Notes: a model not told the origin generated them from the letters alone. A stretch of 64,000 nt of DNA from an uncultured Bacteroidia bacterium (GCA_938028625.1 CALIZB010000003.1:12103-76102); one strand, 5' to 3'; counted from the stretch's first letter, positions 29,131 to 58,600 are shown. Made by a program: numbers and translations.

Positions 29131-29137
29131 AAGAGTG

Positions 29138-29223: not shown

Positions 29224-29251
29224 AAATACTCTTAATTCTCAAAGAACTTTG

Positions 29252-29572: not shown

Positions 29573-29589
29573 AAAAATAAAGTAAAATA

Positions 29590-32387: not shown

Positions 32388-33380
32388 TTAAAATCTTGGG
32401 CAAGGCATTCTACGAAAACGCTTTCCTTTGAGTTTATTCGTTTGTTCTACTTCAATATTAAAGGAGATTTCGTGAGCGCCAAGTCCGTATCCTCTCATGT
32501 TTGAAGTAGTAATATCATAACTGTATCCTACGGTAAACATACCTATTTTTATGCCTGCAAGCAAGATAACTGCATCATTTAATCTGTACCAAGAACCTAA
32601 TAAAAGCATTTTGTAATTACCATAAACACCTACGTCTATTTGTGTGAAAGGACCTTGTTTTCTGTATAAACCGCCGAAACCTATATTGGTTTTCTCATTT
32701 ACAGGGAATAAACCACCAATATTTCCTGTCATACGCATAGGAAGTTTGGCACTCTGTCCGTACAATAAAAGGGACTGATTGGGTTGCGTTAAGTGGTGTG
32801 CACTAAAACCCGCATACAAGTATTTGTTATACCATTCTATACCTCCTGCAAAATCAGTGTAAGTAATGGTTCTGCTTGCGGGTAAATTCTCACCAGAGGG
32901 AAGACTACTATTAAACCCTGTTCTTGGGTCAAGTTGGTTACCAAAAGTTAAGAGATAAAAATCTATGCTTTTTTGTGCAAAACCTGCTTGTCCGCCAAGA
33001 AGCAAATTAGAACCACCAAGATTAAAGTTTGCAGAATAAATAGCATTAAAATCAAGGGACTCCAAGTTTCCTTCTCCTGCACGGTCTACATTTATTATAG
33101 CCCCTACTCCGTGTGTAACGAGTTTATTTACCTGTTTTCCGCCTTTGTGAGAAGAACCAAATATCAAGGTCTGGTCATAAGCCGCACTGAATGTATTGTA
33201 ACTCTTACCTAATCCAGGCCACTGGTTTCGGTAAATCAATGTTCCTCTCGGTCCTGCGCCTGAACCAGCAAAAGCAGGGTTCATATACAATTTAGCGGCA
33301 TAAAACTGCGAAAATTGCGGGTCTTGGGCAAAGGTTTGTAACACAACAAAACAAGCAAAATACAATAATACTTTTTTCAT
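32388..33380 (-). CDS. Type IX secretion system membrane protein, PorP/SprF family.
   Basis: The N-terminus MKKVLLYFACFVVLQTFAQDPQFSQFYAAKLYMNPAFAGS matches the PorP/SprF signature. The 330-aa protein is a predicted beta-barrel. Confidence 0.8.
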   Translation of the reverse strand: MKKVLLYFACFVVLQTFAQDPQFSQFYAAKLYMNPAFAGSGAGPRGTLIYRNQWPGLGKSYNTFSAAYDQTLIFGSSHKGGKQVNKLVTHGVGAIINVDRAGEGNLESLDFNAIYSANFNLGGSNLLLGGQAGFAQKSIDFYLLTFGNQLDPRTGFNSSLPSGENLPASRTITYTDFAGGIEWYNKYLYAGFSAHHLTQPNQSLLLYGQSAKLPMRMTGNIGGLFPVNEKTNIGFGGLYRKQGPFTQIDVGVYGNYKMLLLGSWYRLNDAVILLAGIKIGMFTVGYSYDITTSNMRGYGLGAHEISFNIEVEQTNKLKGKRFRRMPCPRF

Positions 33381-38876: not shown

Positions 38877-41126
38877 TTACTGCTTCATGATTTTATAAGT
38901 TTCGGAATATTGTTTTCCATCATAAAAACGAAGCATATAAAATCCTGTACTAAATTCGCTGATATTTACAGGAATAGAATATCTACCTGAAGTACTACCG
39001 ATATTGACTTTTTTCACTACTTTTCCATACATATCTAAAATTTCAAGATCTCCGTTCGTTTGTGTTGGGAAGTACATATCCAATTTTACTTCATCTTGTG
39101 CAGGATTAGGATACACACCTAAAATTGTGCTGTTAATATGCGTAGGAGCATAATCTATTTCAATGGGATTACCATAAGTATAACTACCATCTTTGGTTTT
39201 AGCATACACACGATAGAAAGTTTTACCTGGTATAGGTTGTGCATCTACAGATAAGTATGTATTTGCACCATTATAGGCTTGCTCATTTACAGGAAAATAA
39301 GTAGTTCCATCAGTAGAGCGTTCTACATAAAAAGTTTGTACATTCATTTCACCTGCTTCCCATTGTAAGTATACTTTATCATTTTGTAGGTTGCCTTTAA
39401 AGTTTATTATTTGTAAAGGTAGATTTAAACACACACTACAGCCTGATGGAGTAAAACGCCATGCTTCATTGGTAGTAGAAGGCCAAGCAGGAATAGCATT
39501 CCTGTTTGGTGCTGCGGGTACTACAGCTTGAGTACCATTATAGTTATGAAGCCCACAAATAGCATAATTATTGTTCCAACTAGGGCAGGAAGGCTTGTTA
39601 CCAATATGAACCTCTATTACATTATTTTGTTCAAATAAACGAATCTGTGTTCTTGCTAAAAGTGAATCACAAGCCGTGCTATACATAGGTACATTATCCC
39701 ATTTTACAGTAAATATACGATTAGGTGCGGTACCTGTGGCATTCGTTCTGATAGTACCTCCTACACTCGGATTCATATCCATCCATACACCAAGTATAGC
39801 ATTACGGGGTGCTTCTGTGGTATTAGGAATGTTCATAGTAATTACCCATCCAGAGGTAGCAGAAGGACTTGCATTGCCTGCAGGCATATTGGTAGCAGAA
39901 CAACTGGGAGAGTCAAAAATAATATAACCATTAGCAGAAATAAGCCCTTGGTTTATATTTGTTTGACCATCATAACAGAAAGGAAAACTGGTAGGAATAT
40001 ACGCAGAACTGAATACGTCGTCAGTGGTAAGGCCAGGTACCGCAGTACCTGTTGTCCAACTTTCAGGTGCATAGGTAATAGAAGATACTGTATATCCCCC
40101 CAAGCCCATATTACAACTTGTAAATCCCCCTGATGGCGCAGTAATACTTAAATTAGAATATGCATTACACGCAGGTGAAGCATAAGAGTCTAATACTAAA
40201 TAGTACGTTTGCCCAGCTACAACATTAGCACACATAGTTTTACTGCCTGTACTACTTTGTGCATACGCTACGCAAGTACCACAGCTAGGACAACCTTGGT
40301 AGAGCATTAAACCTGTCCATGTTCCTCCCGAAGTAAGCGTAATAGTAATATCACCCGATGTAGTAGGGGTAAATACCCATACTCTATCCTCACCTGTATA
40401 GTAATTAGAACTACCACATACCACAGAGTTAATAGATGTTTGGTCGTTTCCTTGCCCGCAGGTTGTTCCTGCACCAGAAGAGTAAGGTAAAGAAGCAATA
40501 TTGATAACTCCTGTACCTAACGCGCATGGGACAGGGGGTGCAGAGGTAACTTGGATATTATCAATAGCGCCAGGAGGCTGTGTTCCAATAGAACCATCAT
40601 TACGCCATGAGAATACCAAACGCATGGTAGTACCAGCAGCCGAACAAGGTAAAGTAAAATTTGCTAATTGGTATGTACTTTGTAAATTTAAGTTTCCACC
40701 AATTTGTCCTGTCGTGAGCATTGTTCCTGCCACAGGGGTAGTTGTAGTGGGAACTAAAAACACTTGGAGATAGTCACAACAGCCTTCGCCTTGTGCTTTC
40801 CATCTAAAAGAAAGTTGTATGTTAGTTTCTCCCGCAGGAAAAGCAATATCCCTATAAAAATGCACCACAGAAGAAGCGGCAATATCATAATTATAGGTTG
40901 TACCACCTGTATTAGAGATGTAGGCGTGCCTTGCGCCAGCAAAAGGGGCACCTACTGCCCCCACATACCATTGGTTAGTACCGCCATTAACTACCGTCCA
41001 GCCGTTAGCACCAAAAGTAGCTCCACTTTCAAATCCTCCGTTGGTAGTAGAATTAACTAATGTAGTTTGAGCATAGCCCAGTACAAAAGTGAACAAAAGA
41101 CAAGATAAGAGTATATGTTTTTTCAT
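38877..41126 (-). CDS. Secreted T9SS cargo protein with a type-A C-terminal sorting domain.
   Basis: It has a signal peptide and T/G/S-rich beta domains. The C-terminus is ...YPNPAQDEVKLDMYF...GFYMLRFYDGKQYSETYKIMKQ. Confidence 0.7.
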   Translation of the reverse strand: MKKHILLSCLLFTFVLGYAQTTLVNSTTNGGFESGATFGANGWTVVNGGTNQWYVGAVGAPFAGARHAYISNTGGTTYNYDIAASSVVHFYRDIAFPAGETNIQLSFRWKAQGEGCCDYLQVFLVPTTTTPVAGTMLTTGQIGGNLNLQSTYQLANFTLPCSAAGTTMRLVFSWRNDGSIGTQPPGAIDNIQVTSAPPVPCALGTGVINIASLPYSSGAGTTCGQGNDQTSINSVVCGSSNYYTGEDRVWVFTPTTSGDITITLTSGGTWTGLMLYQGCPSCGTCVAYAQSSTGSKTMCANVVAGQTYYLVLDSYASPACNAYSNLSITAPSGGFTSCNMGLGGYTVSSITYAPESWTTGTAVPGLTTDDVFSSAYIPTSFPFCYDGQTNINQGLISANGYIIFDSPSCSATNMPAGNASPSATSGWVITMNIPNTTEAPRNAILGVWMDMNPSVGGTIRTNATGTAPNRIFTVKWDNVPMYSTACDSLLARTQIRLFEQNNVIEVHIGNKPSCPSWNNNYAICGLHNYNGTQAVVPAAPNRNAIPAWPSTTNEAWRFTPSGCSVCLNLPLQIINFKGNLQNDKVYLQWEAGEMNVQTFYVERSTDGTTYFPVNEQAYNGANTYLSVDAQPIPGKTFYRVYAKTKDGSYTYGNPIEIDYAPTHINSTILGVYPNPAQDEVKLDMYFPTQTNGDLEILDMYGKVVKKVNIGSTSGRYSIPVNISEFSTGFYMLRFYDGKQYSETYKIMKQ

Positions 41127-41697: not shown

Positions 41698-42720
41698 TTA
41701 ATAATGTATATATGGATAGTTTGGTTCAGCGTACACATCTTTATAGAGTTCATCAGGAGTAGGAAAAGGAGACTCATCAGCAAATTTTACGCTTTCTTCT
41801 ACTATTTGATTTACTTTTTGCTCTATAGCTTCACACTGGGCTTCGGTAGCACCTGCTTCAATAGCCTCACGCTTTAGGTCCATGACAGGGTCAAGATTTT
41901 TAAACTGTTCCAACTCTTCTTTGGTGCGGTATTTAGCGGGGTCAGACATAGAATGCCCACGATAACGGTAGGTTTTAATTTCTAAAAAAGCAGGCCCATG
42001 TCCTTCTCTTGCTAATTGTACATATTTTTTTGTAGCTTCATACACATCACGAGTTTCCATACCATTAACCTGTTCAGAAGGCATATCATAAGCTAAACCC
42101 AGTTTATATATATCTGTAACATTAGAGGTGCGTTCTACAGAAGTTCCCATAGCATAGAGGTTATTTTCACAAATGAAGATAACAGGAAGTTTCCATAACA
42201 TAGCCATATTAAAAGCCTCGTGTAATGCGCCCTGGCGTACTGCGCCATCACCCATAAAACACACGCATACACTATCTTCCTTCATGTACTTAATTTTGAA
42301 GGCAATGCCTGCGCCAAGAGGAATTTGACCACCTACAATGCCATGTCCGCCCATAAAACGGTGCTCTTTGGAAAAAAGATGCATAGAACCACCTTTACCT
42401 TTGGAACAACCTGTAATTTTACCATACAATTCTGCCATAATGCTATTAGCAGACATACCTTTAGCTAAGGCCTGCCCGTGTTCACGATAAGCAGAAATCA
42501 TATAATCATCAGGGCGAAGTGCCGCAGCTACACCTACTGCTACCGCTTCCTGACCGATATACAAATGGCAGAATCCTCTGATTTTTTGCTGGGTCTGATA
42601 AATAAAACCTGCTTTTTCCTCAAATTTGCGCATCAGAAGCGCCTGTTCATACCAGTTGAGTAAAAGTTCTGCGGTATATTCTGTTTTATTTTCTTTTTTA
42701 CTTTGTGCTTTTTTAGCCAT
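41698..42720 (-). CDS. pdhA: Pyruvate dehydrogenase (acetyl-transferring) E1 component alpha subunit.
   Basis: The TPP-binding motifs are GQEAVAVG, YREHG and GDGAVRQGALHEAFNMAMLWKLPVIFICENNLYAMGT. The R..HS phosphorylation-loop equivalent is YRYRGHSMSD. Confidence 0.9.
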   Translation of the reverse strand: MAKKAQSKKENKTEYTAELLLNWYEQALLMRKFEEKAGFIYQTQQKIRGFCHLYIGQEAVAVGVAAALRPDDYMISAYREHGQALAKGMSANSIMAELYGKITGCSKGKGGSMHLFSKEHRFMGGHGIVGGQIPLGAGIAFKIKYMKEDSVCVCFMGDGAVRQGALHEAFNMAMLWKLPVIFICENNLYAMGTSVERTSNVTDIYKLGLAYDMPSEQVNGMETRDVYEATKKYVQLAREGHGPAFLEIKTYRYRGHSMSDPAKYRTKEELEQFKNLDPVMDLKREAIEAGATEAQCEAIEQKVNQIVEESVKFADESPFPTPDELYKDVYAEPNYPYIHY

Positions 42721-42824
42721 AGTACAAAGCTATAAAAAACCTGACCAAAACTCAAAAATTCTATCTAAAAAATCTTACTTTTATCTTGTTTATCTCTTAC
42801 AATCAATATAATACAATTTTTATT

Positions 42825-43121
42825 TTAATAAATTTCTACATCATATACAAGTTCTGTATTTACATATTGATTTATTTTTTCTTTAATCTCTTTTTTTCTG
42901 TAATACAATTCATTTCTCCAACAGCTGTTATTCATTTTTACATACAAGATTTTTTCCTTGAAAAACATATTTGTAGTATGATTGGCGGCACTTTCTCCTA
43001 CTATATTCTTCCATTCGGATATAATCAACTGGCGGTACATTTCTACATCTAACTTGCTTTCTTTAAGAAAAGAATGTATAGAATCAGATAGAGATATTTC
43101 TCCAAGAATACGGTTTTTCAT
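42825..43121 (-). CDS. DUF721-family small protein (the recF-associated gene).
   Basis: It is 98 aa. The start overlaps the recF stop by 4 nt, and the conserved W..I.G.....T position matches the classic recF-DUF721 arrangement. Confidence 0.55.
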   Translation of the reverse strand: MKNRILGEISLSDSIHSFLKESKLDVEMYRQLIISEWKNIVGESAANHTTNMFFKEKILYVKMNNSCWRNELYYRKKEIKEKINQYVNTELVYDVEIY

Positions 43122-44185
43122 AATTCAATAGATTGATAAGTAAAATTAGGTTTTAGTTCATTTAAACGGCTTTTTTGAGTATCTGTGATGAATATCTGTC
43201 CTTTGAGAGTATTAAGAAAAGTAAAAAGTTGAGTTAATCTTTGAGTATCTAATTTATCACAAATATCATCAAGGAGTAAAATGGGATTAGTTTTTTTTTG
43301 TTGTGCAAGATACGAATATTGTGCTAACTTTATAGATAAAGCAAACGTTTTTTGTTGTCCCTGTGAAGCAAAGCTCTTGACTGATAAGCCATTAATTTTA
43401 AACACAATTTCATCTTTGTGTACCCCTGATAAAGTTCTGCCTGCGGCTATATCCCTAGAATGGTGTTGAGATAAATAAGCCCTAAAATTTTCTTTATGAT
43501 GAGAAATATAACTCAATGAAGGACGCTCTACATGATTACAAATTTGATAATACACTTCCTCAAAAAATGATGTAAAAGTTTGGAAAAAGCTATCTCTGTA
43601 TGTATTTATGAGTTCTCCGTATCTTTCTAATAAACTATCATAAACACCTAACAAATCTGTTGAGTAAGTTTGTACATTTTCTTGTATTTGTTTGAGAAGT
43701 GCATTTCTTTGTTTTAAAGTTTTTTGATATTGACTTAACGCATTTAAGTATTCGGGGTGTAGTTGGCACAAAACAAGGTCAAAACTTCGTTTTTTCTCTT
43801 CATTACTTTCTATGAGTGCATATACATCATAAGGTGCAAAAAAAAGCATGCTAATTCTACCAATATGGCTACCCATATTTTTAACTAACTCTTGATTTAC
43901 CCATAATTTCTTTCCCATATGCACATGATATGCATAGCGTACAGAGTGTATGTCCGAGTCTGAACATTCTGCTTGTACAGTTGTGTACTCTTTGCCATAC
44001 ATTATGTTTTCTTTATCTAAATGCTGAAAGTAGCTTTTTGTAAATCCTAAACAATAGATAGCATCTAATATATTAGTTTTACCTGTACCATTTAGCCCCG
44101 ATATAAAGTTAATATCAGAGCTAAATGTAAAAAACTTGTCTAAATGATTTCTGAACTGTTCTAATTTTAGCGTTTTAATATACAC
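43118..44185 (-). CDS. recF: DNA replication and repair protein RecF.
   Basis: MYIKTLKLEQFRNH...FISGLNGTGKTNILDAIY is the Walker A motif. The SMC-like signature/Walker B is ILLLDDICDKLD. The protein is 355 aa. Confidence 0.9.
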   Translation of the reverse strand: MYIKTLKLEQFRNHLDKFFTFSSDINFISGLNGTGKTNILDAIYCLGFTKSYFQHLDKENIMYGKEYTTVQAECSDSDIHSVRYAYHVHMGKKLWVNQELVKNMGSHIGRISMLFFAPYDVYALIESNEEKKRSFDLVLCQLHPEYLNALSQYQKTLKQRNALLKQIQENVQTYSTDLLGVYDSLLERYGELINTYRDSFFQTFTSFFEEVYYQICNHVERPSLSYISHHKENFRAYLSQHHSRDIAAGRTLSGVHKDEIVFKINGLSVKSFASQGQQKTFALSIKLAQYSYLAQQKKTNPILLLDDICDKLDTQRLTQLFTFLNTLKGQIFITDTQKSRLNELKPNFTYQSIEL

Positions 44186-44201
44186 ACCACAAAAGTAAGA
44201 A

Positions 44202-44693
44202 TTACTCCGCGGTTAAGACTACTTCTGTATTGATTTCACCTTTTCCGTTTTTGTCATAAAAGCGTGCTTTGAAAAGATATTTTTTACCTGATTCCATAGG
44301 GTTACCCGTAGTAAAATACGCATCTAATATTTCAGCGTCTTCTGCGGAATACTCCCCTTTTAAGATATCCACAGCGTCTAACAAAGATTTACCTGTGGCT
44401 ACATCAATAATATACATATCCACACCAGGACTTACTTTACCACTGCTTAATTTCTTATATCCTTTTACTCCTGTTACTACAATAGCAAACTTATACTTGC
44501 CAAGCGGTACAGTATTTTTCCTGATTTTAGTCTTAGTTTCCACGTCCATAAGGTAATACTCCCCAACATTCAAACCTTTGTACTTGATTTTTAGCCCTGT
44601 AACAAGGTCTTTGGCACTACCTGACTGCGCAGAAACAGAATTTGAAAATGCGGATAACACACAAAGGGTTATCCATAAAACTATTTTGTTCAT
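44202..44693 (-). CDS. Secreted hypothetical protein (163 aa).
   Basis: The signal peptide is MNKIVLWITLCVLSAFSNSVSAQ. No motif is recognised. Confidence 0.4.
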   Translation of the reverse strand: MNKIVLWITLCVLSAFSNSVSAQSGSAKDLVTGLKIKYKGLNVGEYYLMDVETKTKIRKNTVPLGKYKFAIVVTGVKGYKKLSSGKVSPGVDMYIIDVATGKSLLDAVDILKGEYSAEDAEILDAYFTTGNPMESGKKYLFKARFYDKNGKGEINTEVVLTAE

Positions 44694-44792
44694 ACTTGCA
44701 AGTATGCCTTAAACACCTGAGTAAAACACTCTGAATATTGATTGACTTATGTTTTTATTTTGTAAAAATCGGCTAAAAGTTGGTAAAAGTAT

Positions 44793-44800
44793 TACTTTTG
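44793..44800 (+). promoter_or_regulatory. TAnnTTTG -7 box (tacttttg) for aroA. It lies inside the ORF-track 5' extension, which argues for the ATG 44807 start.
   Basis: The motif ends 6 nt before ATG 44807. Confidence 0.35.
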
Positions 44801-44806
44801 TATAGA

Positions 44807-46123
44807 ATGGACGTTTATCAGTTATATCCTAAAAGCCTCAGGGAAATTACTCTAACCTTACCCTGTTCCAAAAGCATAGTCAACAGAGTTATTCCGCTTT
44901 CTGTATATTTTAATGTACCCTTGCAGATAACTAATGTTACCTTAAACACTGATATTGAAACTTGCCTGAACAGTATTGCTAAAATGGGGTTTTTTGTAAA
45001 ATACAATCCTGAAACAAACACTTTGAAGATAGACAGGCAGTTAGACGTAAAAAAAGAAAAAATACATTTAGATGTAGGTCCTTCGGGTACTACTTTGAGG
45101 TTTATGACAGCATTAGCCCCTTTTTTAGGTTCAAAAATTCATATAGATGGTGATGAGACCCTAAAAAAACGCCCTATTCAAGATTTATTAGAGGTTTTAG
45201 AACAACAACTCGGGGTACAGGTTCAGTATCATGAAAAACACGGACATTTACCATTTACGCTTATTCCTACTTTGGATTTTCCAAAAACTAAACATCTCAC
45301 TGTAAAAGCCGATAAAAGTAGTCAGTTTGCTTCTGCACTATTGATGATTTTACCTTATTTAGGTCAAGGTGCTACCTTAACCTTGTGTCCTCCTGTATAT
45401 TCTTATTCTTACATTGAACTTACTTTACAAGTTATGCAAGAACTCGGCTTTGAAATACAAAAAAAAGATAATTACACTTATGAGTACGTAGGCAGACAAA
45501 TACCTGAAAAACAGATTTTCTATCATACAGAAGCAGACTGGTCTGCGGCTACTTTTTGGTATGGATATACGGCTTTATCAGGCAGAAAAACTACTTTAAT
45601 CGGACTTAATCCAAACAGCGTACAGGGAGAACGCAGTATTAAGCAAATTATGCAAAAAATGGGAATTCATTCTGAATTTAACACAAGCAATGAACTGGAA
45701 ATTCTTCCTGCACAAAGTCCTTTACAAGCCACAGACGCAGATTTAACCTTATTACCTGACGCTACTCCTATGTTAGCCGTATTATGTGCGTTTGCACAAG
45801 GTAAAAGCACATTTACAGGTTTGCAAACCCTGATATACAAAGAAACTGACCGCATACAGGCATTAGTGCAGGAACTTAAAAAAATGAACGTTAATGTAGA
45901 ATACGCTTCTAATAGCTTAACTATTTACGGCACACAACCTCAAAATGCTGTTATAGAAACCTATCAGGACCATAGAATAGCTATGGCTTTTGCTATGGCA
46001 GGAGTAAAAATACCCTATCTTTCCATACTTGAACCAAAGTGTGTAGAAAAATCTTATCCGAAATTTTGGGAACATTACAAACAAACAGGTATGCTTATTT
46101 TACACCGAAGAACTGTAATATAA
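44807..46123 (+). CDS. aroA: 3-phosphoshikimate 1-carboxyvinyltransferase (EPSP synthase).
   Basis: LDVGPSGTTLRFMTALAP is the EPSPS P-loop-like motif. DHRIAMAFAMAG is the conserved C-terminal motif. The ORF-track TTG start at 44780 is rejected. Confidence 0.85.
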   Translation: MDVYQLYPKSLREITLTLPCSKSIVNRVIPLSVYFNVPLQITNVTLNTDIETCLNSIAKMGFFVKYNPETNTLKIDRQLDVKKEKIHLDVGPSGTTLRFMTALAPFLGSKIHIDGDETLKKRPIQDLLEVLEQQLGVQVQYHEKHGHLPFTLIPTLDFPKTKHLTVKADKSSQFASALLMILPYLGQGATLTLCPPVYSYSYIELTLQVMQELGFEIQKKDNYTYEYVGRQIPEKQIFYHTEADWSAATFWYGYTALSGRKTTLIGLNPNSVQGERSIKQIMQKMGIHSEFNTSNELEILPAQSPLQATDADLTLLPDATPMLAVLCAFAQGKSTFTGLQTLIYKETDRIQALVQELKKMNVNVEYASNSLTIYGTQPQNAVIETYQDHRIAMAFAMAGVKIPYLSILEPKCVEKSYPKFWEHYKQTGMLILHRRTVI

Positions 46124-46226
46124 GCGTATTTATTGGTTAGCAACAAGATTAGTGATTAGCAGAATAACGAAGTAATCATGTGCTCAGCATGTCAAAATGA
46201 CCCCCTTATTTATTTCAAAAATTTCC

Positions 46227-46234
46227 TACATTTG
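46227..46234 (+). promoter_or_regulatory. TAnnTTTG -7 box (tacatttg) for the TPR-CHAT gene.
   Basis: The motif ends 5 nt before the GTG start at 46240. Confidence 0.3.
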
Positions 46235-46239
46235 CACTT

Positions 46240-49176
46240 GTGAAAGTATTTTTTATCGCCTTTTTACTTTACTTTACCTTATTTTGCACAGCGCAAACTT
46301 GGCAAAGTGCCTATGATAGCTGTAAAAAATATCAAGACTTACAACAATATAAAAAAGCCATTGAGTGGGGAGATAAAGCCTTAGAACTATATGAAAAACA
46401 AGTTTTAATGAAAGATACGAATTATAGTAATATTTTGAATAGACAAATTGAAAATTGTTATTATAGTGGTTTATACAAAAAAGGAGAGCTATATGCTAAA
46501 AAAGATAGTATTTGGTCAAAAAGCTATATTCAAGATTTAAGTAGATATTCTATTTCTTGCAATAATTTAGCATTGTTATACGAAGTTCAGGGTCATTACA
46601 CTGAAGCGGAGGCTCTCTTTAAAGAAACGAAAAGTATTTTAGAAAAAACACTAGGCAAAGAACATATTCAATATGCTACTACTTGCAATAATTTAGCAGT
46701 CTTATACAAAGAACAAGGTCGTTTCACTGAAGCCGAAGTTCTCTTTAAAGAAATCAAAAATACTCTACAAAAAGTACTCAGCAAAGAACATGTTGAGTAC
46801 GCTACCGCTTGCAATAATTTAGCTAATATGTACATATCTCAAGATCGTTATAATGAAGCCGAACCTTTGTATAAAGAAGCCAGAGCAATTCTAGAAAAAG
46901 TACTTAATAAAAAACATCCAGATTATGCTTCATCTTGCAATAATTTAGCCACATTGTATCACTCTCAAAGACGTTATAGTGAAGCCGAACCTTTGTATAA
47001 AGAAGCCAAGGCGATAAGAGAAAAAGTACTGGGCAAAGAACACCCCGATTATGCAGTTTCTTGCAATAATTTAGCCAATTTATACAAAGCTCAAGGTCGT
47101 TATAGTGAAGCCGAACTTTTGTATAAAGAAGCCAAAGCAATTTATGAAAAGATACTTGGCAAAAAACACCCTGATTATGCTAATTTATGCAATAATTTAG
47201 CTATTCTATACAAATCTCAAAGACTTTATAGTGAAGCTGAGATACTATACAAAGAGTCCAAAACGATTTATGAGAAAATACTTGGTACAGAACACCCAAA
47301 CTATGCAACTTGTTGTAACAATCTAGCAGAATTATACAAGGAACAAGGTCGTTATAGTAAAGCTGAGTCTCTTTTCAAGGAAGCAAAGGCTATTCGCGAA
47401 AAAATGCTTGGCAAAGAAAGCCCAAACTATGCGGCTTCTTGCAACAATTTAGCAGAATTATACAAAGAACAAGGTCGTTATGATGAAGCTGAAGCGCTAT
47501 GTAAAGAGTCTAAAACGATTTATGAAAAAATACTCGGTAGAGATCATCCTTCTTATGCTTTATCTTGCAGAAATTTAGCCCGTTTATACCATAAACAAGG
47601 TTTATACTATAGTGCAGAACCTTTATACATAGAGTCCATTCAAGTTAAGCAAAAAGAAATAGAAAAAAATTTCAAAGGGCTATCCGAAGCAGAAAAAGAA
47701 AAATATATAAAAGCAAACATAGAAGGTTTTTTTACTGATTTTCAATGTTTTGTGAGCAAACGTTATTTAGAAAATCCTTTTGTGGCAGGTTATGCCTATA
47801 ATCTTGCCATATTTACCAAAGGACTTATTCTAGAAAGTACTCAAAAAATTAAGAACCGTATTCTTAATAGCAAAGATGAAAATCTTAAAAATCTTTACCT
47901 TGAATGGAAACAAACCAAAGATAAATATGCTAAATTCCAAAATCTAACCATACAACAAAGATTACAGAAAAAAATCAATTTAGATAGTATAGAAAAACGT
48001 GCTAATGAATTAGAAAAAGAACTCGCTTCCAAAAGTGAAGATTTTGCGCATGTATTTATTTCAAAATCTGTTACTTGGCAAGATATACAATCTAAACTTG
48101 AACAAGACCAAGCCGCAATAGAAGTTATCAGAGTAGAATTAAACACAGATGATTATTTTTACATGATATTCTTTCTTAAAAAAGAAAGTAATTGCCCAAA
48201 AATGATAGTCCTGCAGAGTGATAGTTTAGAAAAAGAATATCTCATCAACTATAGAAGAAGTACTCGGCATAAACTATACGATCCTTACAGTTATAACGTC
48301 TTTTGGAAAAAAATTAAAGAAAAACTCAAAGATATAAAAACAGTGTATTTTTCTCCTGACGGGATATATCATCAAATTAACTTGCTTACCTTGCAAAACC
48401 CAGAAACGAAAAAATATGTATTTGATGAGATACAAATTATTAACGTAACCAATACCAAAGATATACTACAAAAACCTAAGAAACACTCTAAAAATAGTCA
48501 TCTAATAGGTAATCCTACGTTTAACTTAGGTATAGACACCAAAGGCAATGAAAAACCTGAAGAGTTCCATAGTATATCAAACTTATCCCAATTGCCAGGT
48601 GCAGAGAATGAAGTAAAACAAGTGGCTAACTATCTACCCAATTCTAAGCTTATTACAGGTAAAGAAGCTACCGAAGAATATGTAAAATACCTCAAAAATC
48701 CACGTATTTTGCATGTAGCCACACATGGGTACTTCAAAAAAGGACAATACCAAAGTAGTACTCAAGCTATGTTAAATGGGGGTTTGCTATTCGCAGGAGT
48801 AGTAGACTATGACCGTATGGAAATTCGTCCTTTTGATAAAGAAGACGGCAAACTTACGGCATTTGAAGTGATGAATATGGAATTAGACAGCACAGAGTTA
48901 GTAGTTTTATCTGCCTGCGAAACAGGTTTAGGAAAAGCAAGTAAAGAAGGAGTATATGGGTTACAACGAGCTTTTAAGGTAGCAGGTGCAGAGTGTATCA
49001 TTATGAGTTTATGGAAGGTAAATGATGAAGCTACGCAGTTACTGATGACTAAATTTTATGAAAATTGGCAGAAAAAAGGCATGAGTAAGCGTGTTGCTTT
49101 TGAAACTGCCCAAAAAGAAATTAGAAAACAATATAAAGAACCGTATTATTGGGGCGCTTTTGTGATGATTGAGTAA
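46240..49176 (+). CDS. Secreted TPR-repeat protein with a C-terminal CHAT (caspase-like) peptidase domain.
   Basis: The signal peptide is MKVFFIAFLLYFTLFCTAQ. It has about nine TPR_12-type repeats (CNNLAxLYKxQGRYSEAEPLYKEAKAIxEKxLGKEHPDYAxS). The CHAT catalytic dyad context is RILHVATHGYF (His) and LVVLSACETGLG (Cys). Confidence 0.8.
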   Translation: MKVFFIAFLLYFTLFCTAQTWQSAYDSCKKYQDLQQYKKAIEWGDKALELYEKQVLMKDTNYSNILNRQIENCYYSGLYKKGELYAKKDSIWSKSYIQDLSRYSISCNNLALLYEVQGHYTEAEALFKETKSILEKTLGKEHIQYATTCNNLAVLYKEQGRFTEAEVLFKEIKNTLQKVLSKEHVEYATACNNLANMYISQDRYNEAEPLYKEARAILEKVLNKKHPDYASSCNNLATLYHSQRRYSEAEPLYKEAKAIREKVLGKEHPDYAVSCNNLANLYKAQGRYSEAELLYKEAKAIYEKILGKKHPDYANLCNNLAILYKSQRLYSEAEILYKESKTIYEKILGTEHPNYATCCNNLAELYKEQGRYSKAESLFKEAKAIREKMLGKESPNYAASCNNLAELYKEQGRYDEAEALCKESKTIYEKILGRDHPSYALSCRNLARLYHKQGLYYSAEPLYIESIQVKQKEIEKNFKGLSEAEKEKYIKANIEGFFTDFQCFVSKRYLENPFVAGYAYNLAIFTKGLILESTQKIKNRILNSKDENLKNLYLEWKQTKDKYAKFQNLTIQQRLQKKINLDSIEKRANELEKELASKSEDFAHVFISKSVTWQDIQSKLEQDQAAIEVIRVELNTDDYFYMIFFLKKESNCPKMIVLQSDSLEKEYLINYRRSTRHKLYDPYSYNVFWKKIKEKLKDIKTVYFSPDGIYHQINLLTLQNPETKKYVFDEIQIINVTNTKDILQKPKKHSKNSHLIGNPTFNLGIDTKGNEKPEEFHSISNLSQLPGAENEVKQVANYLPNSKLITGKEATEEYVKYLKNPRILHVATHGYFKKGQYQSSTQAMLNGGLLFAGVVDYDRMEIRPFDKEDGKLTAFEVMNMELDSTELVVLSACETGLGKASKEGVYGLQRAFKVAGAECIIMSLWKVNDEATQLLMTKFYENWQKKGMSKRVAFETAQKEIRKQYKEPYYWGAFVMIE
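46555..47650 (+). repeat. Tandem, roughly 126-bp coding repeats (TPR units) inside the TPR-CHAT gene.
   Basis: The nucleotide-level periodicity is tgcaataatttagc...gaagccgaa(c/g)ctttgtataaagaagcc, repeated about 9 times. Confidence 0.8.
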
Positions 49177-49355
49177 CACGGTCATTGAGTAGCCTGTAAG
49201 GCGTACCGAAATGACCGTATAGTATCCCAAAATGACCGTACATACAGCGGTGGCTTCGGTACGCTTCGCTACTCAGCCACCTTATGCAAATTAGTCATTG
49301 AGTGGTTCGGCAAGCTCACTAACCAAGCTCACTAATCGTAAGGCATGCCTAAGTG
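49177..49355. other. GC-enriched structured repeat island immediately 3' of the TPR-CHAT gene. Candidate ncRNA, terminator complex or small repeat element.
   Basis: cacggtcattgag...gaaatgaccgtatag...aaaatgaccgtacat gives inverted and direct copies of atgaccgt. The hairpin is ggtggct-N19-agccacc. A direct repeat gtcattgagt occurs twice, and the tandem caagctcactaa occurs twice. aaggcatgc is shared with the island at 29441. Confidence 0.35.
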
Positions 49356-49426
49356 AATATGTGCATATCTTAAACATAAATCAGTAAAAGTCTATGCAGT
49401 AATTCTATATTTCTTACTTTTTACTG

Positions 49427-49434
49427 TATTTTTG
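49427..49434 (+). promoter_or_regulatory. TAnnTTTG -7 box (tatttttg) for plsC.
   Basis: The motif ends 7 nt before ATG 49442. Confidence 0.3.
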
Positions 49435-49441
49435 TGGCATA

Positions 49442-50173
49442 ATGAAATTATTAAAAAAACTTTGGGCAATTTGGTATGTATTCATTTTTTTGTTTATTTT
49501 TTTTACCTTGATTTTTCCCTTTCAAGCACTGTTTATTCAAAGAAAGAAGTGGCATCCGTATGCAAATTTTATGAATAGTATATGGGCATTTATTGTATGC
49601 CCATTAGCAGGACACTGGATATTTGTTAAGAACAAAAAAAATTTCAAAAAAAGCAAGCGCCCTTACCTTATAGTAGCTAATCATAGCTCATACATAGATA
49701 TTCCCATTCTTATGTGGAGCATTCCCTTTGATGCACGATACATAGGTAAAGCTGAACTCAGTAAAGTTCCTGCTTTCGGATATATGTTTCGCAAATTACA
49801 TATTCCTGTCAATAGAAGTAGTAAAATAGACAGTTATCGTGCTTTCAAAAAAGCAAGCGAATTTTTAGAAAAAGGTACTTCCGTAGTTATCTTCCCCGAA
49901 GGTACTATTCCTGACACTCCCAATCAATTAGGAGAATTTAAAAATGGTGTTTTTGCATTAGCAATACAACACAAAGTACCTATTCTGCCCATTAGTATTA
50001 AAGGTAGTCGTTATGCGTTTGAAGACCCCACAATATTCCGTGCTATGCCGAGAAAAATTACTGTAATTATACATGAACCTGTCATAATTACTAATCAAAC
50101 AGAACAAGAACTTAAATCACAAGTTTACCAACTTTTATCTAAAACAGTATTTGAACATGAATGTAAAACCTAA
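49442..50173 (+). CDS. plsC: 1-acyl-sn-glycerol-3-phosphate acyltransferase.
   Basis: The HX4D motif is VANHSSYIDIPIL and the FPEGT motif is present. There is an N-terminal TM helix. Confidence 0.85.
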   Translation: MKLLKKLWAIWYVFIFLFIFFTLIFPFQALFIQRKKWHPYANFMNSIWAFIVCPLAGHWIFVKNKKNFKKSKRPYLIVANHSSYIDIPILMWSIPFDARYIGKAELSKVPAFGYMFRKLHIPVNRSSKIDSYRAFKKASEFLEKGTSVVIFPEGTIPDTPNQLGEFKNGVFALAIQHKVPILPISIKGSRYAFEDPTIFRAMPRKITVIIHEPVIITNQTEQELKSQVYQLLSKTVFEHECKT

Positions 50174-50921
50174 AAAGCATCTTGGACAGCACTTTTTACG
50201 AGATTTATCCATAGCTAAACGCATAGCAGACACACTTACATATACGCATCTACCCGTGTTAGAAATAGGCGCAGGTACAGGAATATTAACACAATTCTTA
50301 ATAGAAAAAAACCTCTCTTTGCATGTTGTAGAAATAGATACAGAGTCTATTCAATACCTTAAAAAAAACTTTTCTGAAAATAGTTTTACTTTGTACGAAC
50401 AGGACTTTTTAAACTTAAATCTCAACTCTCTTCCCTCACCTATAACATGGATAGGAAACCTGCCGTACAATATCAGTTCGCAGATATTTTTTAAATTATG
50501 GGAAAACTATGAGCAAGTTCCCGAAGCGGTTTTTATGGTACAAAAAGAAGTAGCCCTCCGTATAGCGGGCAAGCCTAATTCCAAAGAATATGGTATTTTA
50601 AGTGTGTTGTTACAATTAGATTATGATATTTGTTATCAATTTACTGTACCTCCGCATGTATTTAATCCGCCACCAAAAGTACAATCAGGCGTTATTCACT
50701 TGATAAAAAAAGAAAATGTACCTACATATGACCGAAAAAAACTGTTACAATTGGTAAAAACCGCTTTTAATCAAAGGCGGAAAACCCTTAAAAACAGCAT
50801 AAAACCTTTGTTTAATGGTGAAATTGATATTACAGTACAGAACAGAAACATATTGGAATGCCGTGCAGAACAGTTATCCGCCAAAGAGTTTTTATTATTA
50901 CTTGATGCCATACAAAAATGA
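50151..50921 (+). CDS. rsmA: 16S rRNA (adenine1518/1519-N6)-dimethyltransferase.
   Basis: KKHLGQHFL and the SAM motif LEIGAGTGILT. The catalytic motif is NLPYNISS. Confidence 0.9.
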   Translation: MNMNVKPKKHLGQHFLRDLSIAKRIADTLTYTHLPVLEIGAGTGILTQFLIEKNLSLHVVEIDTESIQYLKKNFSENSFTLYEQDFLNLNLNSLPSPITWIGNLPYNISSQIFFKLWENYEQVPEAVFMVQKEVALRIAGKPNSKEYGILSVLLQLDYDICYQFTVPPHVFNPPPKVQSGVIHLIKKENVPTYDRKKLLQLVKTAFNQRRKTLKNSIKPLFNGEIDITVQNRNILECRAEQLSAKEFLLLLDAIQK

Positions 50922-50958
50922 GCATGAATTTTGAGAGAAAAATAGTACTTTTGCATCA

Positions 50959-52452
50959 ATGAAATATTTTAGCGTATTCATATTTTTAACTTTGTATCTG
51001 ACTTCACAAGCACAGCAACTGCATTCTATTGGTAATCCTGTGAATAGTATGCACACAGAATATGCCCCTGCCATCAGTCCTGATGATAAAACTATTATTT
51101 TTCAAAGTAGCAGACAGGGCGGTGTGTATAAACTGTATGAGTCTAAATATGACGAAAAAACAAAAAAATGGTCAGAACCGAAGTATCTTTCTAATATCAA
51201 TAATTTTTTTGAGAGTAAAACTTATATATTCGGACCTTGTCTGAGTTATGATGGCAATTATCTCTATTTCTGCACAGATGAAAAAGGTATGGGTGCTATG
51301 GATATATGGGTTTCCCGCAGAAAAGGTAAAGAATGGACAACCCCTTCTAATCTCGGCTATCCCATCAATACAGATGGCTACGATGGTTTTCCTGCTGTAT
51401 CTGCTGACGGCAAGGCACTATATTTTATGCGAGATAATAAAAACAATACTAATCGTACTAATTCAGGGTTAGAATGCTATGATTTATATGTATCCTACAA
51501 ACAACCTAATGGCGCCTGGGGCGAACCCGAAAAACTTCCTGCACCTGTCAATATGGGCTGTGAACGCATTCCCCGCATTATGCCTGATGGAAAAACATTG
51601 TATTTCTCTTCATATAGACCAGGGGGAAAAGGTGATTTAGATATTTACAAGTCTGTTCTCGGTCCTGATGGCAAGTGGAGTAACCCGCAACCGCTTAATT
51701 TTATGAACACAAATACGGCAGATAATACAGGTTCTATTAACGGTGCATGCGATAGAATGTATATTGCGTCTAAACAAATGAATAACTGGGACATTTTTTA
51801 TGTAGATATACCTCCCGAGTATCGTCCTGCTACAACAAATATCGTAGTAGAAGGTACAATTACTGATACCACTACCCAAAAACCCATTGCCGCAAAAATT
51901 CAGGTAGCAGATTTAGAAACCAAAGAAATACTTATAGAACAAGAAAATAACAGTTATGATGGTACTTATATGGTAGTTGTTCCCACAGGTAAAGACTATG
52001 AAATTACCGTTTCTGCCAAAGGATACTTTTTTAATTCTATGGAAATCAATGCCAAAGAAATAACTACTTACAAAGAGATAGATAAAGATATTAAATTAGA
52101 AAAACTAAAAAAAGATAAATCCATTCCTTTGAAAAATATCTACTTTGATTTTGACTCCTACAAACTAAAACCTGAGTCTTATATTGAATTGGATAAAGTA
52201 GTCCGTCTTATGCAAGAAAACCCCGAAATTAGCATTGAACTCAGCGCACACACAGATGACAGGGGCAAAGATGACTATAACATGACCCTCTCTAATAACC
52301 GTGCAAAATCTGCCGCAGAATATATTTTTAGCAAAGGGATAGACAAAACCCGCATTGTATCCAAGGGGTACGGAGAAACAAAACCTCTTGTACCTAACTC
52401 TACTGATGAAAACCGAGCAATAAACCGAAGAGTTGAATTCAAAATACTGTAA
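50959..52452 (+). CDS. OmpA-family outer-membrane protein with N-terminal PD40/TolB-like repeats and a carboxypeptidase-regulatory-like domain.
   Basis: It has a signal peptide and PD40-like repeats (SPDDKTIIFQSSRQGG, SADGKALYFMRD, MPDGKTLYFSSYRPGG). The OmpA C-terminus is NRAKSAAEY...NRRVEFKIL. Confidence 0.8.
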   Translation: MKYFSVFIFLTLYLTSQAQQLHSIGNPVNSMHTEYAPAISPDDKTIIFQSSRQGGVYKLYESKYDEKTKKWSEPKYLSNINNFFESKTYIFGPCLSYDGNYLYFCTDEKGMGAMDIWVSRRKGKEWTTPSNLGYPINTDGYDGFPAVSADGKALYFMRDNKNNTNRTNSGLECYDLYVSYKQPNGAWGEPEKLPAPVNMGCERIPRIMPDGKTLYFSSYRPGGKGDLDIYKSVLGPDGKWSNPQPLNFMNTNTADNTGSINGACDRMYIASKQMNNWDIFYVDIPPEYRPATTNIVVEGTITDTTTQKPIAAKIQVADLETKEILIEQENNSYDGTYMVVVPTGKDYEITVSAKGYFFNSMEINAKEITTYKEIDKDIKLEKLKKDKSIPLKNIYFDFDSYKLKPESYIELDKVVRLMQENPEISIELSAHTDDRGKDDYNMTLSNNRAKSAAEYIFSKGIDKTRIVSKGYGETKPLVPNSTDENRAINRRVEFKIL

Positions 52453-52469
52453 AAAACCTATTTCCCATT

Positions 52470-55636: not shown

Positions 55637-58600
55637 CTAACGTATAATTACTAATTTTTGATATTGAGAAACAGGCTTTTTGTCTTTACTTGTACGAATT
55701 TGCAGTTTATAGATATAAGTACCTCTGCCAATTCTATCCCCAAAATCATCTAAACCGTCCCATTGAATACTACGTACCTGTGTACCTTCTGAAATTACAT
55801 CTTGCTGAATGGTTTTTATGAGGCGTCCTGAAATAGTGTAAATTTGTACAGTAACTTCTAAAAGCTCACCTGGTCTGTTGTGTTCAAACCAAAATTCTGT
55901 ATGTGTAGAGAAAGGATTAGGATAATTTAACACATTAGCCAAAGCTAATTCAGCGCTTTTAGCAACAATAAATTCGGTAACGGCTTCATTAGAATTATTG
56001 AATACGTCCCATGCTTTTACTCTCATTGAATATCTGCCTTCATTGAGTTTTTCCATTTGATAATTTACTTTTCCACTCTGATAACTATTGAGTTCATAAG
56101 TAAAGTACTCGTTCAATATACGATTATCTTTGGAATTTTCATTTAATCTTCCTGTAATGTCGTGTCCTACACTTGTGCCTACGGTATTGATGCCATTTTC
56201 ATCATAAATTTTGGCAATAAGAATAGGTGTATCATCTACTATGCCTCCACGAATAAAATTTTCATCATTCATAAAAAGTTCAATTTTAGGTCCTTGATTA
56301 TCCACAGGCGGATTTGGATTTACTCCACCTACCACAATATCTATATTATATCCCCCACCATCTTGTTTAACTTGTCCATTTTCAAAATAAAGGGATATTT
56401 TTCCTTTGCCAAAAGTGTAATCAATATCTTTGGGAACAACAAATTCAAAGGCAAATTTTCCTGCATTTACAGAGGCTTTGCCCTGAAAAATAATATTTTT
56501 GTAAGACTTGTACGTACGGGGTTCTACTATGGTAGTCTGTGTGGCAGGTTTGTCAAAAACAGTAGAATACAGTGTACCGTTATAGTTCGTATTCAGACTA
56601 CCGTCGTTGTTGCGTACCTCTCCTTCAATACGGATTTTAGTAAGAGCTCTGAGGGTATCTAAGGTAACTGCGGTATTTAAACCTGTAACTTTGAGTACAG
56701 AGGCTTTTTTTTCAGGGTAGTTTAACTTCATAGCAGGGTCACCGAGTAAAGCAAAAGCCGTAGAATTTAGCCCTGACAAGTTCATACTATTCATATAGAT
56801 TTCACCTATGGTATAATGGCTACCGTTGCTCATCGTATCAAAAACAGATTTAGCGAAATTTTTATTTAATATTTCGTTAGCACTGGCGTACACCAGTCGT
56901 GTAGTTGTAAATAAAGCAATAGCCCCACCATCAGATTTTTTGAATACCTCTATGCCAATAGAAGTTTTTTCAGGGTCATCAAAACGCCCAAATTCGCAAG
57001 TAGCCGTAACCATAAGTGGCATTTTTACAGGATTTGTAAAAGCACTGAGGTCTGGCATATTGAACAGGCGTTCATGTCCTATACCTTCTTCATTACCGTG
57101 TCCTGCATAATTTAATATAAGTGTACCTTGCGTAAAAGCTTCTATTACTTTTTGTTTTACGTCAGGTCTGCGCTTACCTACCGCAGTAGATACCACAGGA
57201 TAGGAATCGCTATACAGTTTATTTACATTGTATTGTGGATAGTTAGTTTCTATAATATCTGTAACAGCTTCCATCTGATTAAAATGGGCAATTTCAGGTG
57301 GACTTACTAAGCCTTCATAATACATATCGTCTGCAAGTAAAGTAACGGTATTTCTCCATTTTCCTAAACCTTCTGGATTAGTCTTATAGCGGATTACTTT
57401 ATCTACCATACCATTGGCTTCAGAAAGGTTGCGTGCAGGAAATCTGCCAACACCTATATCCATTTCATCAACGATACTGCTTTCTAATTTACCATCAACA
57501 TCATCTAATGCTCCTATAAACTGGTCAAAACCAATGGAATATACAGGACTGAGCGAATTTGAGCTTTGGTAAGTAGGAATCATACAACCATTTATCTTGG
57601 GACTATAGCCTGCTGCACCCATAATGAGTACATTTTTAGGTATTATCACTCCCCTATCGTAGTGCATTTTAAGAAAATCACGTATAGCTACTACATCGGC
57701 TTTTCCTGATGCAAATTCTGTATAAATCTGACGCACAGGTACTACGGCAACGGTCATATTATCATACTCTCTGTGAAACTGGGCTAATCGCTCTGCGGCA
57801 GGTATCAGGCTTTCATGAGTAATAATAAAAAACTCTGCGCTGTTCATACCATGTAAATTTTGATTAGCTACTTTACCTAATAACATAGGACTTTGTGTGC
57901 CATTACTATTAAATCCTACAATCCATTTGCGGTTAGAAGCATCTACCTTGAATTGTGCAGTAGTACCTGAAAGCGTGTAAGGAATAGATTGTATATTAAA
58001 AATATCGGTTACGTCCCAAAAAGTAGCATCAGTAGCATTTTCTACGGTATATTGATGAATGTTACCTGATGCAATATTACTTAACTGTGTCATCAAGACA
58101 TAATTTTCGTTGAGATTAGCATTTTTAATATAATTGATGCGGATAAAGTTCGTCCATACATCACAAGCGCCGTTTTTTGCAAAATTAACAGTATATTGTA
58201 ATTCAGGTGTAGTAACGGTATTACTGTTTATAGTAAGTGTAGCATTGAATATACTAGCATAGTCCGCTACATAGCTCGGATTGTACGGGGTAAGGTTGCG
58301 TATTACGTTGTTGCTTCCTGCAGAGAATGTCATTGTTCCCCCACCTCCGCGATATGCCATTTCAATATAAGCAGTAAGGTTAGTATTAGGTGCAAGGTTA
58401 GTAGTATTAAGCATGTAAGAGTAAGAATTTTGTCCTACAAAGTTTTCACCAAACATGGTTTTACCTGATTTTATCAGGCTGTACTGGTCTTTTTCAAAAA
58501 AGGTATAGGCATTATAGGTGCTGAATGTATGCGTAGCAGGGGCAGTAATAGCTGTGGTTGTAGGAATACGCAATCCATTTCCAGGAATATCTGCCGTAAT

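Follow-up and report, generated by a model that had tools for sequence, protein, structure and literature searches.

The TPR-CHAT gene and its protein

In a 64,000-nt stretch of DNA from an uncultured Bacteroidia bacterium (hereafter the window; overall GC content of 0.347), an open reading frame (ORF) at 46240..49176 (+ strand), with a GTG start and a TAA stop codon, encodes a 978-aa protein that combines tetratricopeptide repeats (TPR) with a C-terminal CHAT protease domain. Directly 3′ of its stop codon lies a GC-enriched and repeat-rich stretch of 180 nt (hereafter the island). The genes around this CHAT gene are recF, a gene for a 163-aa secreted-looking protein, aroA, a plsC-like gene, rsmA, an OmpA/PorE-like gene and an SBP_bac_5 gene. 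A preliminary description of the locus had read the protein as a secreted, stand-alone, caspase-like protease and the island as an unusual, structured repeat stretch, and both parts of that reading are revisited below.

Searching the 978-aa protein against Pfam returned TPR_10 (E-value of 3e-110, in nine stretches), TPR_12 (4.6e-82) and CHAT (PF12770; 5.6e-58), the latter over residues 685–977, with 197 bits against a cut-off of 24 and covering profile positions 8–287 of 289. This caspase-fold domain (48292..49170, + strand) holds His829 in the motif HVATHGYF (nt 48724–48726) and Cys893 in the motif LSACETG (nt 48916–48918). In an alignment of 39 homologues that were 29–70% identical, both residues (the His in THG, the Cys in SACxTG) were invariant, and they were so again in a set of 28 sequences. 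The caspase fold with an intact His/Cys dyad proposed earlier is thus borne out by Pfam, by the 39-homologue alignment and by the AlphaFold2 model and Foldseek searches described below, and the loss of dyad conservation that would have spoken against it is not the case. N-terminal to this domain, residues 101–478 (46540..47673, + strand) form nine 42-aa TPR_10/TPR_12 units, as seen from Pfam, Tandem Repeats Finder (TRF; 8.3 copies of 126 bp with 73% matches) and pairwise identity. Since these units share 40–79% amino acid identity among themselves (mean of 59%; 67% at the nucleotide level), the earlier count of about nine stands, while their description as near-identical was wrong.

The first 18 residues (MKVFFIAFLLYFTLFCTA; 46240..46293, + strand) resemble a secretion signal, judging from hydropathy and from conservation among homologues, with a single Lys2 followed by a 13-residue hydrophobic core (residues 3–15) and a mean Kyte-Doolittle value of 2.5 over 11 residues (in MKVFFIAFLLYFTLFCTA|QT). 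A hydrophobic N-terminus was also present in 32 of the 39 sampled homologues, and the nearest of these carry a conserved AQ(T/S)WQSAYDSC after the hydrophobic stretch, with CTA|Q here corresponding to (F/S)AQ|(T/S)W there. Of the Sec signal claimed earlier, the signal-like hydrophobic N-terminus therefore holds, and cleavage is predicted before QTW. Export would then be a conserved trait of the TPR-CHAT family, and probably applies to this protein as well.

That family is very large, as more than 7,600 relatives were found in a large protein collection at an E-value of at most 1e-10 (8,000 candidates scored). Nearly all of the 120 relatives listed had both TPR and CHAT domains, some contigs carried several paralogues, and the closest among the matches listed were 61–67% identical "CHAT domain-containing proteins" from uncultured Bacteroidia. 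In the other genomes examined, the neighbours of the CHAT gene were mainly ordinary metabolic or unannotated genes. Judging from its sequence, the protein is an ordinary member of this predicted exported family.

A structural model of residues 480–978 (AlphaFold2; pLDDT of 79 and pTM of 0.82) was compared with known structures via Foldseek, yielding Csx29, the TPR-CHAT protease of Craspase, as best match (E-value of 7e-13, TM-score of ~0.45), the periplasmic TPR-CHAT part of DdvA (PDB 8ROT; 1.9e-8) as second family, and subsequently separase, SAVED-CHAT, gingipain and MALT1. By sequence, the solved structures were only marginally similar (E-value of 0.1 for Csx29), with the dyad motifs aligning with those of Csx29. 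The Craspase comparison made earlier thus holds at the level of the fold, but sequence similarity is marginal and a type III-E context is missing, since no Cas7-11/gRAMP, Csx30/31 or CRISPR array is present here. Moreover, Csx29 is cytoplasmic, whereas the present protein has a signal-like N-terminus. The Myxococcus anti-sigma factor DdvA shares with it an extracytoplasmic TPR-CHAT region with a canonical His-Cys dyad, but DdvA also has a cytoplasmic zinc anti-sigma domain (ZASD), a transmembrane helix and a partner extracytoplasmic function (ECF) sigma factor; here, an 18-residue signal-like segment leads into the TPR region, with neither a ZASD nor a transmembrane part and no sigma factor gene nearby. 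By comparison, the stand-alone bacterial TPR-CHAT proteins (PF12770 with TPR_10/TPR_12) match in domain order, His/Cys dyad and length range without substantial difference; thousands of these exist, many named just "CHAT domain-containing protein", and the exported stand-alone members are without a known substrate. The protein thus joins a known family as a new member, and neither Craspase component nor DdvA-type anti-sigma factor is an appropriate label for it.

The genetic surroundings agree with the stand-alone character proposed in the preliminary description. None of the 46 window ORFs of at least 110 aa encodes a Cas protein, a transposase (tyrosine RAYT/IS200-type included) or an integrase/recombinase, PADLOC returned no match for the TPR-CHAT protein, and no defence partner of its gene was found within ~10 kb. 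Likewise, no sigma factor gene and no gasdermin or ECF sigma/anti-sigma module adjoins it.

Whether the gene belongs to the conserved backbone of the locus can be read from contigs of related bacteria (referred to by L numbers), as relatives of the plsC-like protein reach 90% identity or more; a scan of genome contigs with PlsC itself gave only relatives of at most 41% identity. In blastn comparison with the closest relative, L015, window positions 42000–46129 correspond to L015 1708–5838 (92.4% identity) and 49370–52464 to L015 5929–9023 (92.9% identity). The 3,240 bp of the window in between (46130..49369), comprising the CHAT gene together with its promoter region and the island, are represented in L015 by 90 bp, and aroA lies directly before plsC. 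Both genes are also adjacent in L012, L013 and L014 (~77–83% identical) and in L062 (~82–84% identical), and L016 likewise lacks CHAT at this locus, where a different gene precedes plsC. Among the contigs compared at the locus, the CHAT gene is confined to the window and to an ENA contig identical to it (L001). Since four related lineages have aroA and plsC adjacent, CHAT is a lineage-specific accessory gene between these two housekeeping genes, a presence/absence polymorphism that is not visible from the window sequence alone and that makes it informative as a gene gained or lost recently. The gene has a GC content of 0.325, equal to that of its neighbours, which argues against a recent import from a distant donor.

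Homology with the CHAT-less relatives restarts at a conserved stretch (49419..50173, + strand) that comprises the plsC-like acyltransferase gene (49442–50173) and a short sequence upstream of it. In Bacteroidetes, the –7 promoter box reads TAnnTTTG. By eye, TACATTTG at 46228–46235 and TATTTTTG at 49429–49436 match this box and end 4–5 nt 5′ of the CHAT GTG and the plsC ATG, respectively; the plsC box is kept in L012, L015, L016 and L062 (as TATCTTTG or TATTTTTG). The positions of these boxes suggest that CHAT and plsC have very short 5′ leaders or none.

The hairpin island and its relatives

The island has a GC content of 0.45–0.49 over 49125–49349, compared with 0.347 for the window, and is the 11th highest 120-nt GC peak. 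The composition that had been called unlike the surroundings is thus indeed GC-enriched, but only moderately so. All of the short inverted and direct repeats reported earlier are present, i.e., two inverted pairs of ACGGTCATT/AATGACCGT, two copies of GTCATTGAGT, two tandem copies of CAAGCTCACTAA and the pair GGTGGCT...AGCCACC. While AATGACCGT occurs five times in the window, against 0.36 expected, the occurrences at 14135 and 31260 lie inside coding sequence and were set aside as unrelated to the island.

Two of these inverted pairs form hairpins of the same design, recognised both by a sequence pattern and by a covariance model (CM) termed R1, each specified below. Copy 1 (49177..49219, + strand; 39.9 bits, E-value of 7e-10; pattern match at 49186–49210) has a perfect 9-bp outer stem of ACGGTCATT/AATGACCGT, the internal strands GAGTA/GTACCGA and an inner stem GCC/GGC, with a folding energy of ~–18.6 kcal/mol. 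Copy 2 is inverted (49246..49284, – strand; 28.5 bits, E-value of 2.3e-6; pattern match at 49255–49275, – strand) and, read on the + strand, has a 7-bp outer stem GGTGGCT/AGCCACC enclosing TCGGTAC, GCTTCGC and TACTC (~–14.5 kcal/mol). The spacer between both copies holds an extra 3′ arm AATGACCGT (49231..49239, + strand; repeat scan and alignment), to which an extra half-unit in L062 is analogous. Downstream of copy 2, repeat scan and TRF revealed a tail (49294..49356, + strand) with the repeats GTCATTGAGT and GTAAGGCRTRCCKAARTGA from copy 1, a tandem 13-nt repeat (49311–49335) and a 10-bp palindrome AGGCATGCCT (49341–49350). This tail is weakly similar to copy 1 (z of 2.3) and received a negative bit score from the CM as a further copy; possibly, it represents a third unit that has degenerated and whose loop has expanded. 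In short, the island is an inverted doublet of one recurring hairpin, in which the GTAG ends face outwards, and closes with this degenerate tail.

Folding is more stable for the island than for shuffled sequences (z of –2.3 and –3.2 for the + and – strands, respectively). A terminator scan revealed no U-tract terminator in it, and it is thus not a plain terminator of this type. The Rfam search suggested in the preliminary description was run (Rfam 15) and assigned no family: the window had no gathering-score match, noise alone appeared at an E-value of up to 10 in 49100–49500, and four loci with canonical hairpin copies had no match at an E-value of up to 1. No further island copies were found inside the window by blastn-short.

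To find relatives elsewhere, a first pattern common to copy 1 and the empty site of L015, i.e., TTGAGTAGCC-N7-CGTACCGAAA, was scanned over JGI metagenomes. It occurred in six contigs of unrelated organisms with 50–69% GC, all reading GGTTGAGTAGCCCG(A/G)AGGGCGTACCGAAACC, and several of these had a second copy close by or nested. A generalised pattern gave 43 matches on 38 virus-like contigs, and a looser one added a few variants with other outer stems; a single chance-type match without a hairpin, in L023, exemplifies the noise. Each unit consists of an outer stem, T-GAGTAG, a GC-rich stem-loop, CGTAYCGA-A and the closing outer strand. The outer stem is usually ..GGTT/AACC.. and 7–10 bp long, and the inner stem begins with G...C and is otherwise free in sequence, with 4–8 bp and T-rich loops.

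Alignment A3, comprising 38 distinct copies from unrelated contigs of 37–69% GC (visible stems were required, and 5 of the 43 were dropped), was used to examine the stems. Pair 17–37 of the inner stem is CG in 19 copies, GC in 10, AU in 6 and UA in 3, and is never unpaired; pairs 18–36 and 19–35 covary in the same way, and so do the unfiltered pairs 20–34 and 21–33. Overall, 86% of stem cells are paired, as opposed to 35–48% when the partner columns are slid, and the covariation score of 0.389 (vs. 0.102 in shuffles) was reached by none of 500 shuffles. Mismatches in the stems are G-T in 14 cases and C-A in 12, and this lack of strand preference fits a palindrome that acts at the DNA level.

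CM R1, built from the outside copies alone without any window sequence and run over the whole window without filters, recognised only copies 1 and 2, the next best score being 9.3 bits. Similarly, TGAGTAG-N(3-30)-CGTAYCGAA occurs exactly twice in the 64 kb, once per strand and at a distance of 45 nt, where none was expected and none was found in shuffles. These data show that both island hairpins belong to a widespread family with covarying stems, so that the island is not a unique structure, but an inverted pair of a recurring hairpin with relatives in many unrelated sequences. When canonical hairpins served as BLAST queries, neither plasmids nor GenBank phages yielded a full-length match, and full-text literature searches for the motif strings returned chance primer matches only.

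A doublet of this kind also lies at a second locus. L062 (~82–84% identical and without CHAT) has two CM copies at its contig start, downstream of an E1 dehydrogenase gene, and window positions 49187–49288 align with L062 1–100 over copy, extra half-unit and inverted copy (z = 10.1, reached by 0 of 1000 shuffles). The L062 contig begins inside the doublet, a kind of break that is common at repeats. At the matching place, the window has an ordinary terminator only, and the same ~100-nt composite therefore resides at different loci in related genomes. Moreover, the 90-bp empty site of L015 matches the 48 nt that directly follow the stop codon of CHAT (nhmmer E-values of 3e-13 and 1.5e-12) and contains, at 5848–5890, a decayed hairpin that has lost both stems, scores 16.8 bits with the CM and is orthologous to copy 1. 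The absence of other island copies, which the preliminary description had named as speaking against its reading, hence holds inside the window and fails outside of it. A dispersed doublet and a decayed copy point to an element subject to insertion and decay, and not to a locus-specific regulator. CHAT homologues at other loci (L002, L003 and L005) lack such a hairpin on their 3′ side.

Upstream of the CHAT gene, local alignment to L015 5839–5895 indicated a weak and possibly degenerate copy of the same empty-site sequence, termed U0 (46142..46181, + strand; z = 4.1, reached by 5 of 1000 dinucleotide shuffles), to which the CM gave a negative bit score as a hairpin copy.

Some further observations concern the family at large. 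In L018 (1620–1690), L019 (1560–1625) and L132, units are nested within another unit's terminal loop and oriented either like that unit or opposite to it, which suggests that the element inserts into its own loop. In L020 (7246–7310) and L021, which have a GC content of 0.67–0.69 and belong to an unrelated organism, a canonical hairpin and a minimal version, GGTTTCGACAGGCTCAACC, lie inside a 609-codon ORF. Such in-ORF hairpins recall in-frame palindromic insertions such as the RPEs of Rickettsia, and short "GGTTGAG...TCGAAACC" hairpins may be a common source of annotated pseudo-peptides such as LVEPVET/VSTGSTS. The motif was also considered as a supplier of stop codons, as 19 of the 43 copies end a co-oriented ORF of at least 80 codons at TGA/TAG (vs. 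17% expected), but this was rejected as an artefact of GC-rich DNA because the ORF products were mostly low-complexity and wrong-frame. By eye, the core showed no fit to the consensus of hammerhead, k-turn, sarcin-ricin, group II domain 5, CRISPR repeat or attC.

A GC-rich (0.60) repeat of ~150 nt at 29436–29577 (– strand), adjoining a tRNA cluster (29058–29324), reads TTTTTGGGCGTGTCCTTG...hairpin...GCATGCCTCACGCA and shares 83% identity with copies that occupy many of the intergenic regions in related Bacteroidia metagenome-assembled genomes, with ~8–10 pieces per 15 kb in L003 and further ones in L002 and L004. It has no Rfam match, its middle contains a diverged TCGGTRC...CTAC core, and a fragment of its 5′ end lies beside the hairpin doublet in L062 (~158–176). 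The island was tried as a member of this "TTTTTGGGCGTGTCCTTG...CCGCATGCCTCACGCA" family and rejected, since an nhmmer profile of 10 copies gave no match at an E-value of up to 10 and pairwise comparisons were inconsistent (z of 0.8 to 3.7). The blocks common to both probably represent the same hairpin core in diverged form.

Other genes in the window

Between recF and aroA, the 163-aa protein (44202–44693, – strand) starts with a signal-like segment and matches nothing in Pfam, NCBIfam or PADLOC. Its counterparts measure 152 aa in L015 and 167 aa in L062, and L012 lacks ~480 bp of the gene (window 44273–44753), with its recF called shorter (295 aa). An AAA_21/AAA_15 ATPase and a DUF4276 protein, encoded at 17719–18828 and 18828–19361 (+ strand), strongly match the PADLOC candidate defence system HEC-01 (HEC-01A, 1.5e-131; HEC-01B, 8.6e-58); this pair lies 27 kb from CHAT without an evident link. 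A stand-alone AAA_21/AAA_15 ATPase at 2651–4342 (+ strand) gave weak NsnB/AriA/GajA-like PADLOC matches, and a stand-alone AAA-ATPase_like protein with a PDDEXK_9 nuclease-type domain at 8315–10042 (– strand) gave none. The window further encodes a second clan-CD caspase-fold protease, i.e., a 1280-aa Peptidase_C25 (gingipain-type) protein at 55640–59479 (– strand; 1.6e-92), and proteins related to the type IX secretion system (PorP/SprF at 32391–33380; cargo with Por_Secre_tail at 10157–12268 and 38880–41126).

Interpretation of the predicted protease and the hairpins

The reading that we favour, and that we hold to be somewhat better than an even bet, is that the locus combines two separate things, namely an exported TPR-CHAT protease as accessory gene and, adjoining it, an inverted hairpin doublet resembling repetitive extragenic palindromic (REP)/REPIN elements. 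The protein is probably a stand-alone, predicted exported and active caspase-fold protease with a TPR recognition module, and its likely location is periplasmic or envelope-associated. Specifically, a Sec-type signal would export a cysteine protease whose nine kinesin-light-chain-type TPR units may bind a protein partner or substrate, and in which a helical linker would lead to the caspase-fold CHAT domain that is expected to cut with the His829/Cys893 dyad. While domain structure, dyad and fold of the protein are shown, its export, proteolytic activity and target are inferred.

The doublet, in turn, most resembles GTAG-tagged REP/REPIN elements. In these, GTAG stands beside a GC-rich hairpin, and the units occur as inverted dimers with the GTAG ends outside, downstream of coding regions (PMC3733652). 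They have been reported in Proteobacteria, Cyanobacteria, Chloroflexi and the PVC superphylum, and not in Bacteroidetes (Di Nocera et al. 2013, PMC3733652). The island likewise has GTAG 5′ of a GC-rich stem-loop (GAGTAG-GCC...GGC at 49187–49204, with its inverted counterpart at 49255–49275), and its inverted units, with copy 1 ending at 49218 and copy 2 starting at 49249, leave ~30 bp between them, the pairing of REP/REPIN units being defined by inverted units 20–100 bp apart; GTAG is on the outside here too. The position downstream of a coding region, the complementary stem changes and the occasional copies inside genes (L020/L021) are further likenesses. In contrast to the described families, a second, outer helix here encloses the internal loop that holds GTAG, a conserved CGTAYCGAA lies 3′ of the hairpin, and it is the loop strands that are kept from phylum to phylum, the stems being free. 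Moreover, none of GAGTAG, TCGAAACC, CGTATCGA and CGTACCGA occurs in the supplementary text of PMC3733652; the comparison with the described GTAG REP families draws on their text.

As a REP/REPIN-like miniature mobile palindrome, the doublet could be mobilised by an HUH transposase of the RAYT type, for which the hairpin in single-stranded DNA would be the substrate, as family resemblance would suggest. Behind CHAT, it would provide the transcript with two stable 3′ stem-loops, which might protect the mRNA end or cause transcription to pause or stop ahead of the plsC promoter. Both the mobility mechanism and the effect on the mRNA are inferred.

Several points weigh against this interpretation. 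No RAYT/IS200-type or other transposase is among the ORFs of the 64 kb; the window has only one motif locus, whereas a high copy number is a defining feature of REPs. Classical REPs copy their whole sequence, whereas here the loops are conserved across organisms and the stems vary. In addition, the search patterns, the first of which came from copy 1, prescribed the loop strands, and loop invariance and the copy 1 match are therefore circular in part. This circularity does not extend to copy 2, to the covariation of the stems or to the doublet in L062. On the side of the gene, what backs export of the protein is hydropathy and conservation, and the TPR-CHAT protein is without a known substrate, partner or phenotype. 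Finally, with the outgroups lacking the gene, a gain in this lineage and a gain in the ancestor shared with L015 followed by loss in L015 both take three events when the hairpins are included.

Since conserved loops combined with free stems are the signature of a functional RNA or single-stranded DNA motif, such a motif is the main rival of the REP-like reading. The hairpin would then be a structured element such as a 3′ untranslated region bound by a protein, a processing site, a small ribozyme or an HUH recognition hairpin, and the island would comprise two such functional units in place of selfish palindromes, which we consider rather unlikely. GAGTA, GTAYCGA and the closing GGTT/AACC are indeed kept over contigs of 37–69% GC while both stems covary, virus-like contigs carry several copies each, as seen with small ribozymes and phage RNA motifs, and the island folds better than its shuffles on either strand. 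Against this stand the absence of an Rfam family even at the permissive E-values used, the occurrence of both orientations side by side, and the equal frequency of G-U-compatible mismatches on both strands, while the loop invariance was in part imposed by the search patterns and the core is by eye unlike the hammerhead, k-turn and sarcin-ricin consensus. That the hairpin represents an undescribed functional motif shared across phyla, being either the substrate of an HUH/tyrosine transposase that has been transferred widely or a structured RNA that binds a protein or is catalytic, is similarly doubtful. A more local function, in which the island serves as a cis-regulatory leader or attenuator of plsC, could draw on overlapping alternative helices upstream of plsC that were revealed by repeat scan and minimum free energy folding (49178–86/49210–18, 49201–17/49248–64 and 49249–55/49275–81). 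Relatives with an 82–93% identical plsC, however, manage without the island and keep only the last ~25–70 nt before the start codon, which makes such an attenuator hardly credible; moreover, the conserved promoter-like stretch lies downstream of the island, and the last helix is without a U-tract.

Gene and hairpins could also form one mobile cassette, with the hairpins or U0/U1 as recombination sites. Integron attC sites, the model for such a cassette, read 5′-RYYYAAC ... GTTRRRY-3′ as inverse-core/core sites with an integrase nearby. CHAT is present or absent as a unit, the hairpin begins 1 nt after the stop codon, and direct repeats bracket the gene, weakly upstream (z of 4.1) and strongly directly downstream. 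The CM does not recognise U0, however, and the CHAT homologues in L002, L003 and L005 go without a downstream hairpin, while the doublet of L062 sits behind an unrelated gene in the absence of CHAT. As the window also lacks an integrase or recombinase, and the motif has GTT 5′ and AAC 3′ in both orientations, the reverse of R″/R′ in attC, we regard a cassette as quite improbable. The protein could, finally, be an anti-phage defence effector or sensor of a Craspase-like, gasdermin-activating or DdvA-like kind, given that its fold is nearest to Csx29 and then to DdvA, and that the gene is accessory and variable. The DdvA TPR-CHAT, called the only characterised periplasmic one, has been proposed to sense a protein signal and to cleave in trans, and DdvA to sense phage signals in the periplasm (PMC11506125). 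PADLOC was nevertheless negative, no cas, gasdermin, ECF sigma or anti-sigma module adjoins the gene, and the transmembrane and ZASD parts of DdvA are missing. Given furthermore that the sole defence-like system in the window, HEC-01 (17719–19361), is 27 kb off, and that the family is huge with mainly ordinary metabolic or unannotated neighbours in the other genomes examined, a role in defence appears very improbable.

Returning to the reading of an accessory protease next to a REP/REPIN-like doublet, the hairpin is a more useful lead than the protease, which by itself adds little to its huge family. The fixed loop strands and covarying stems of the hairpin recur in organisms of 35%–69% GC and on virus-like contigs. 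As a REP variant, it would bring Bacteroidia and a two-helix architecture into the range of GTAG-type REPs; as a functional motif of RNA or single-stranded DNA, it would be new and without an Rfam family. Such islands account for spurious small ORFs and contig breaks. For the TPR-CHAT family, the presence or absence of CHAT between flanks that are 92% identical provides a natural pair in which to ask what an exported caspase-like protease does.

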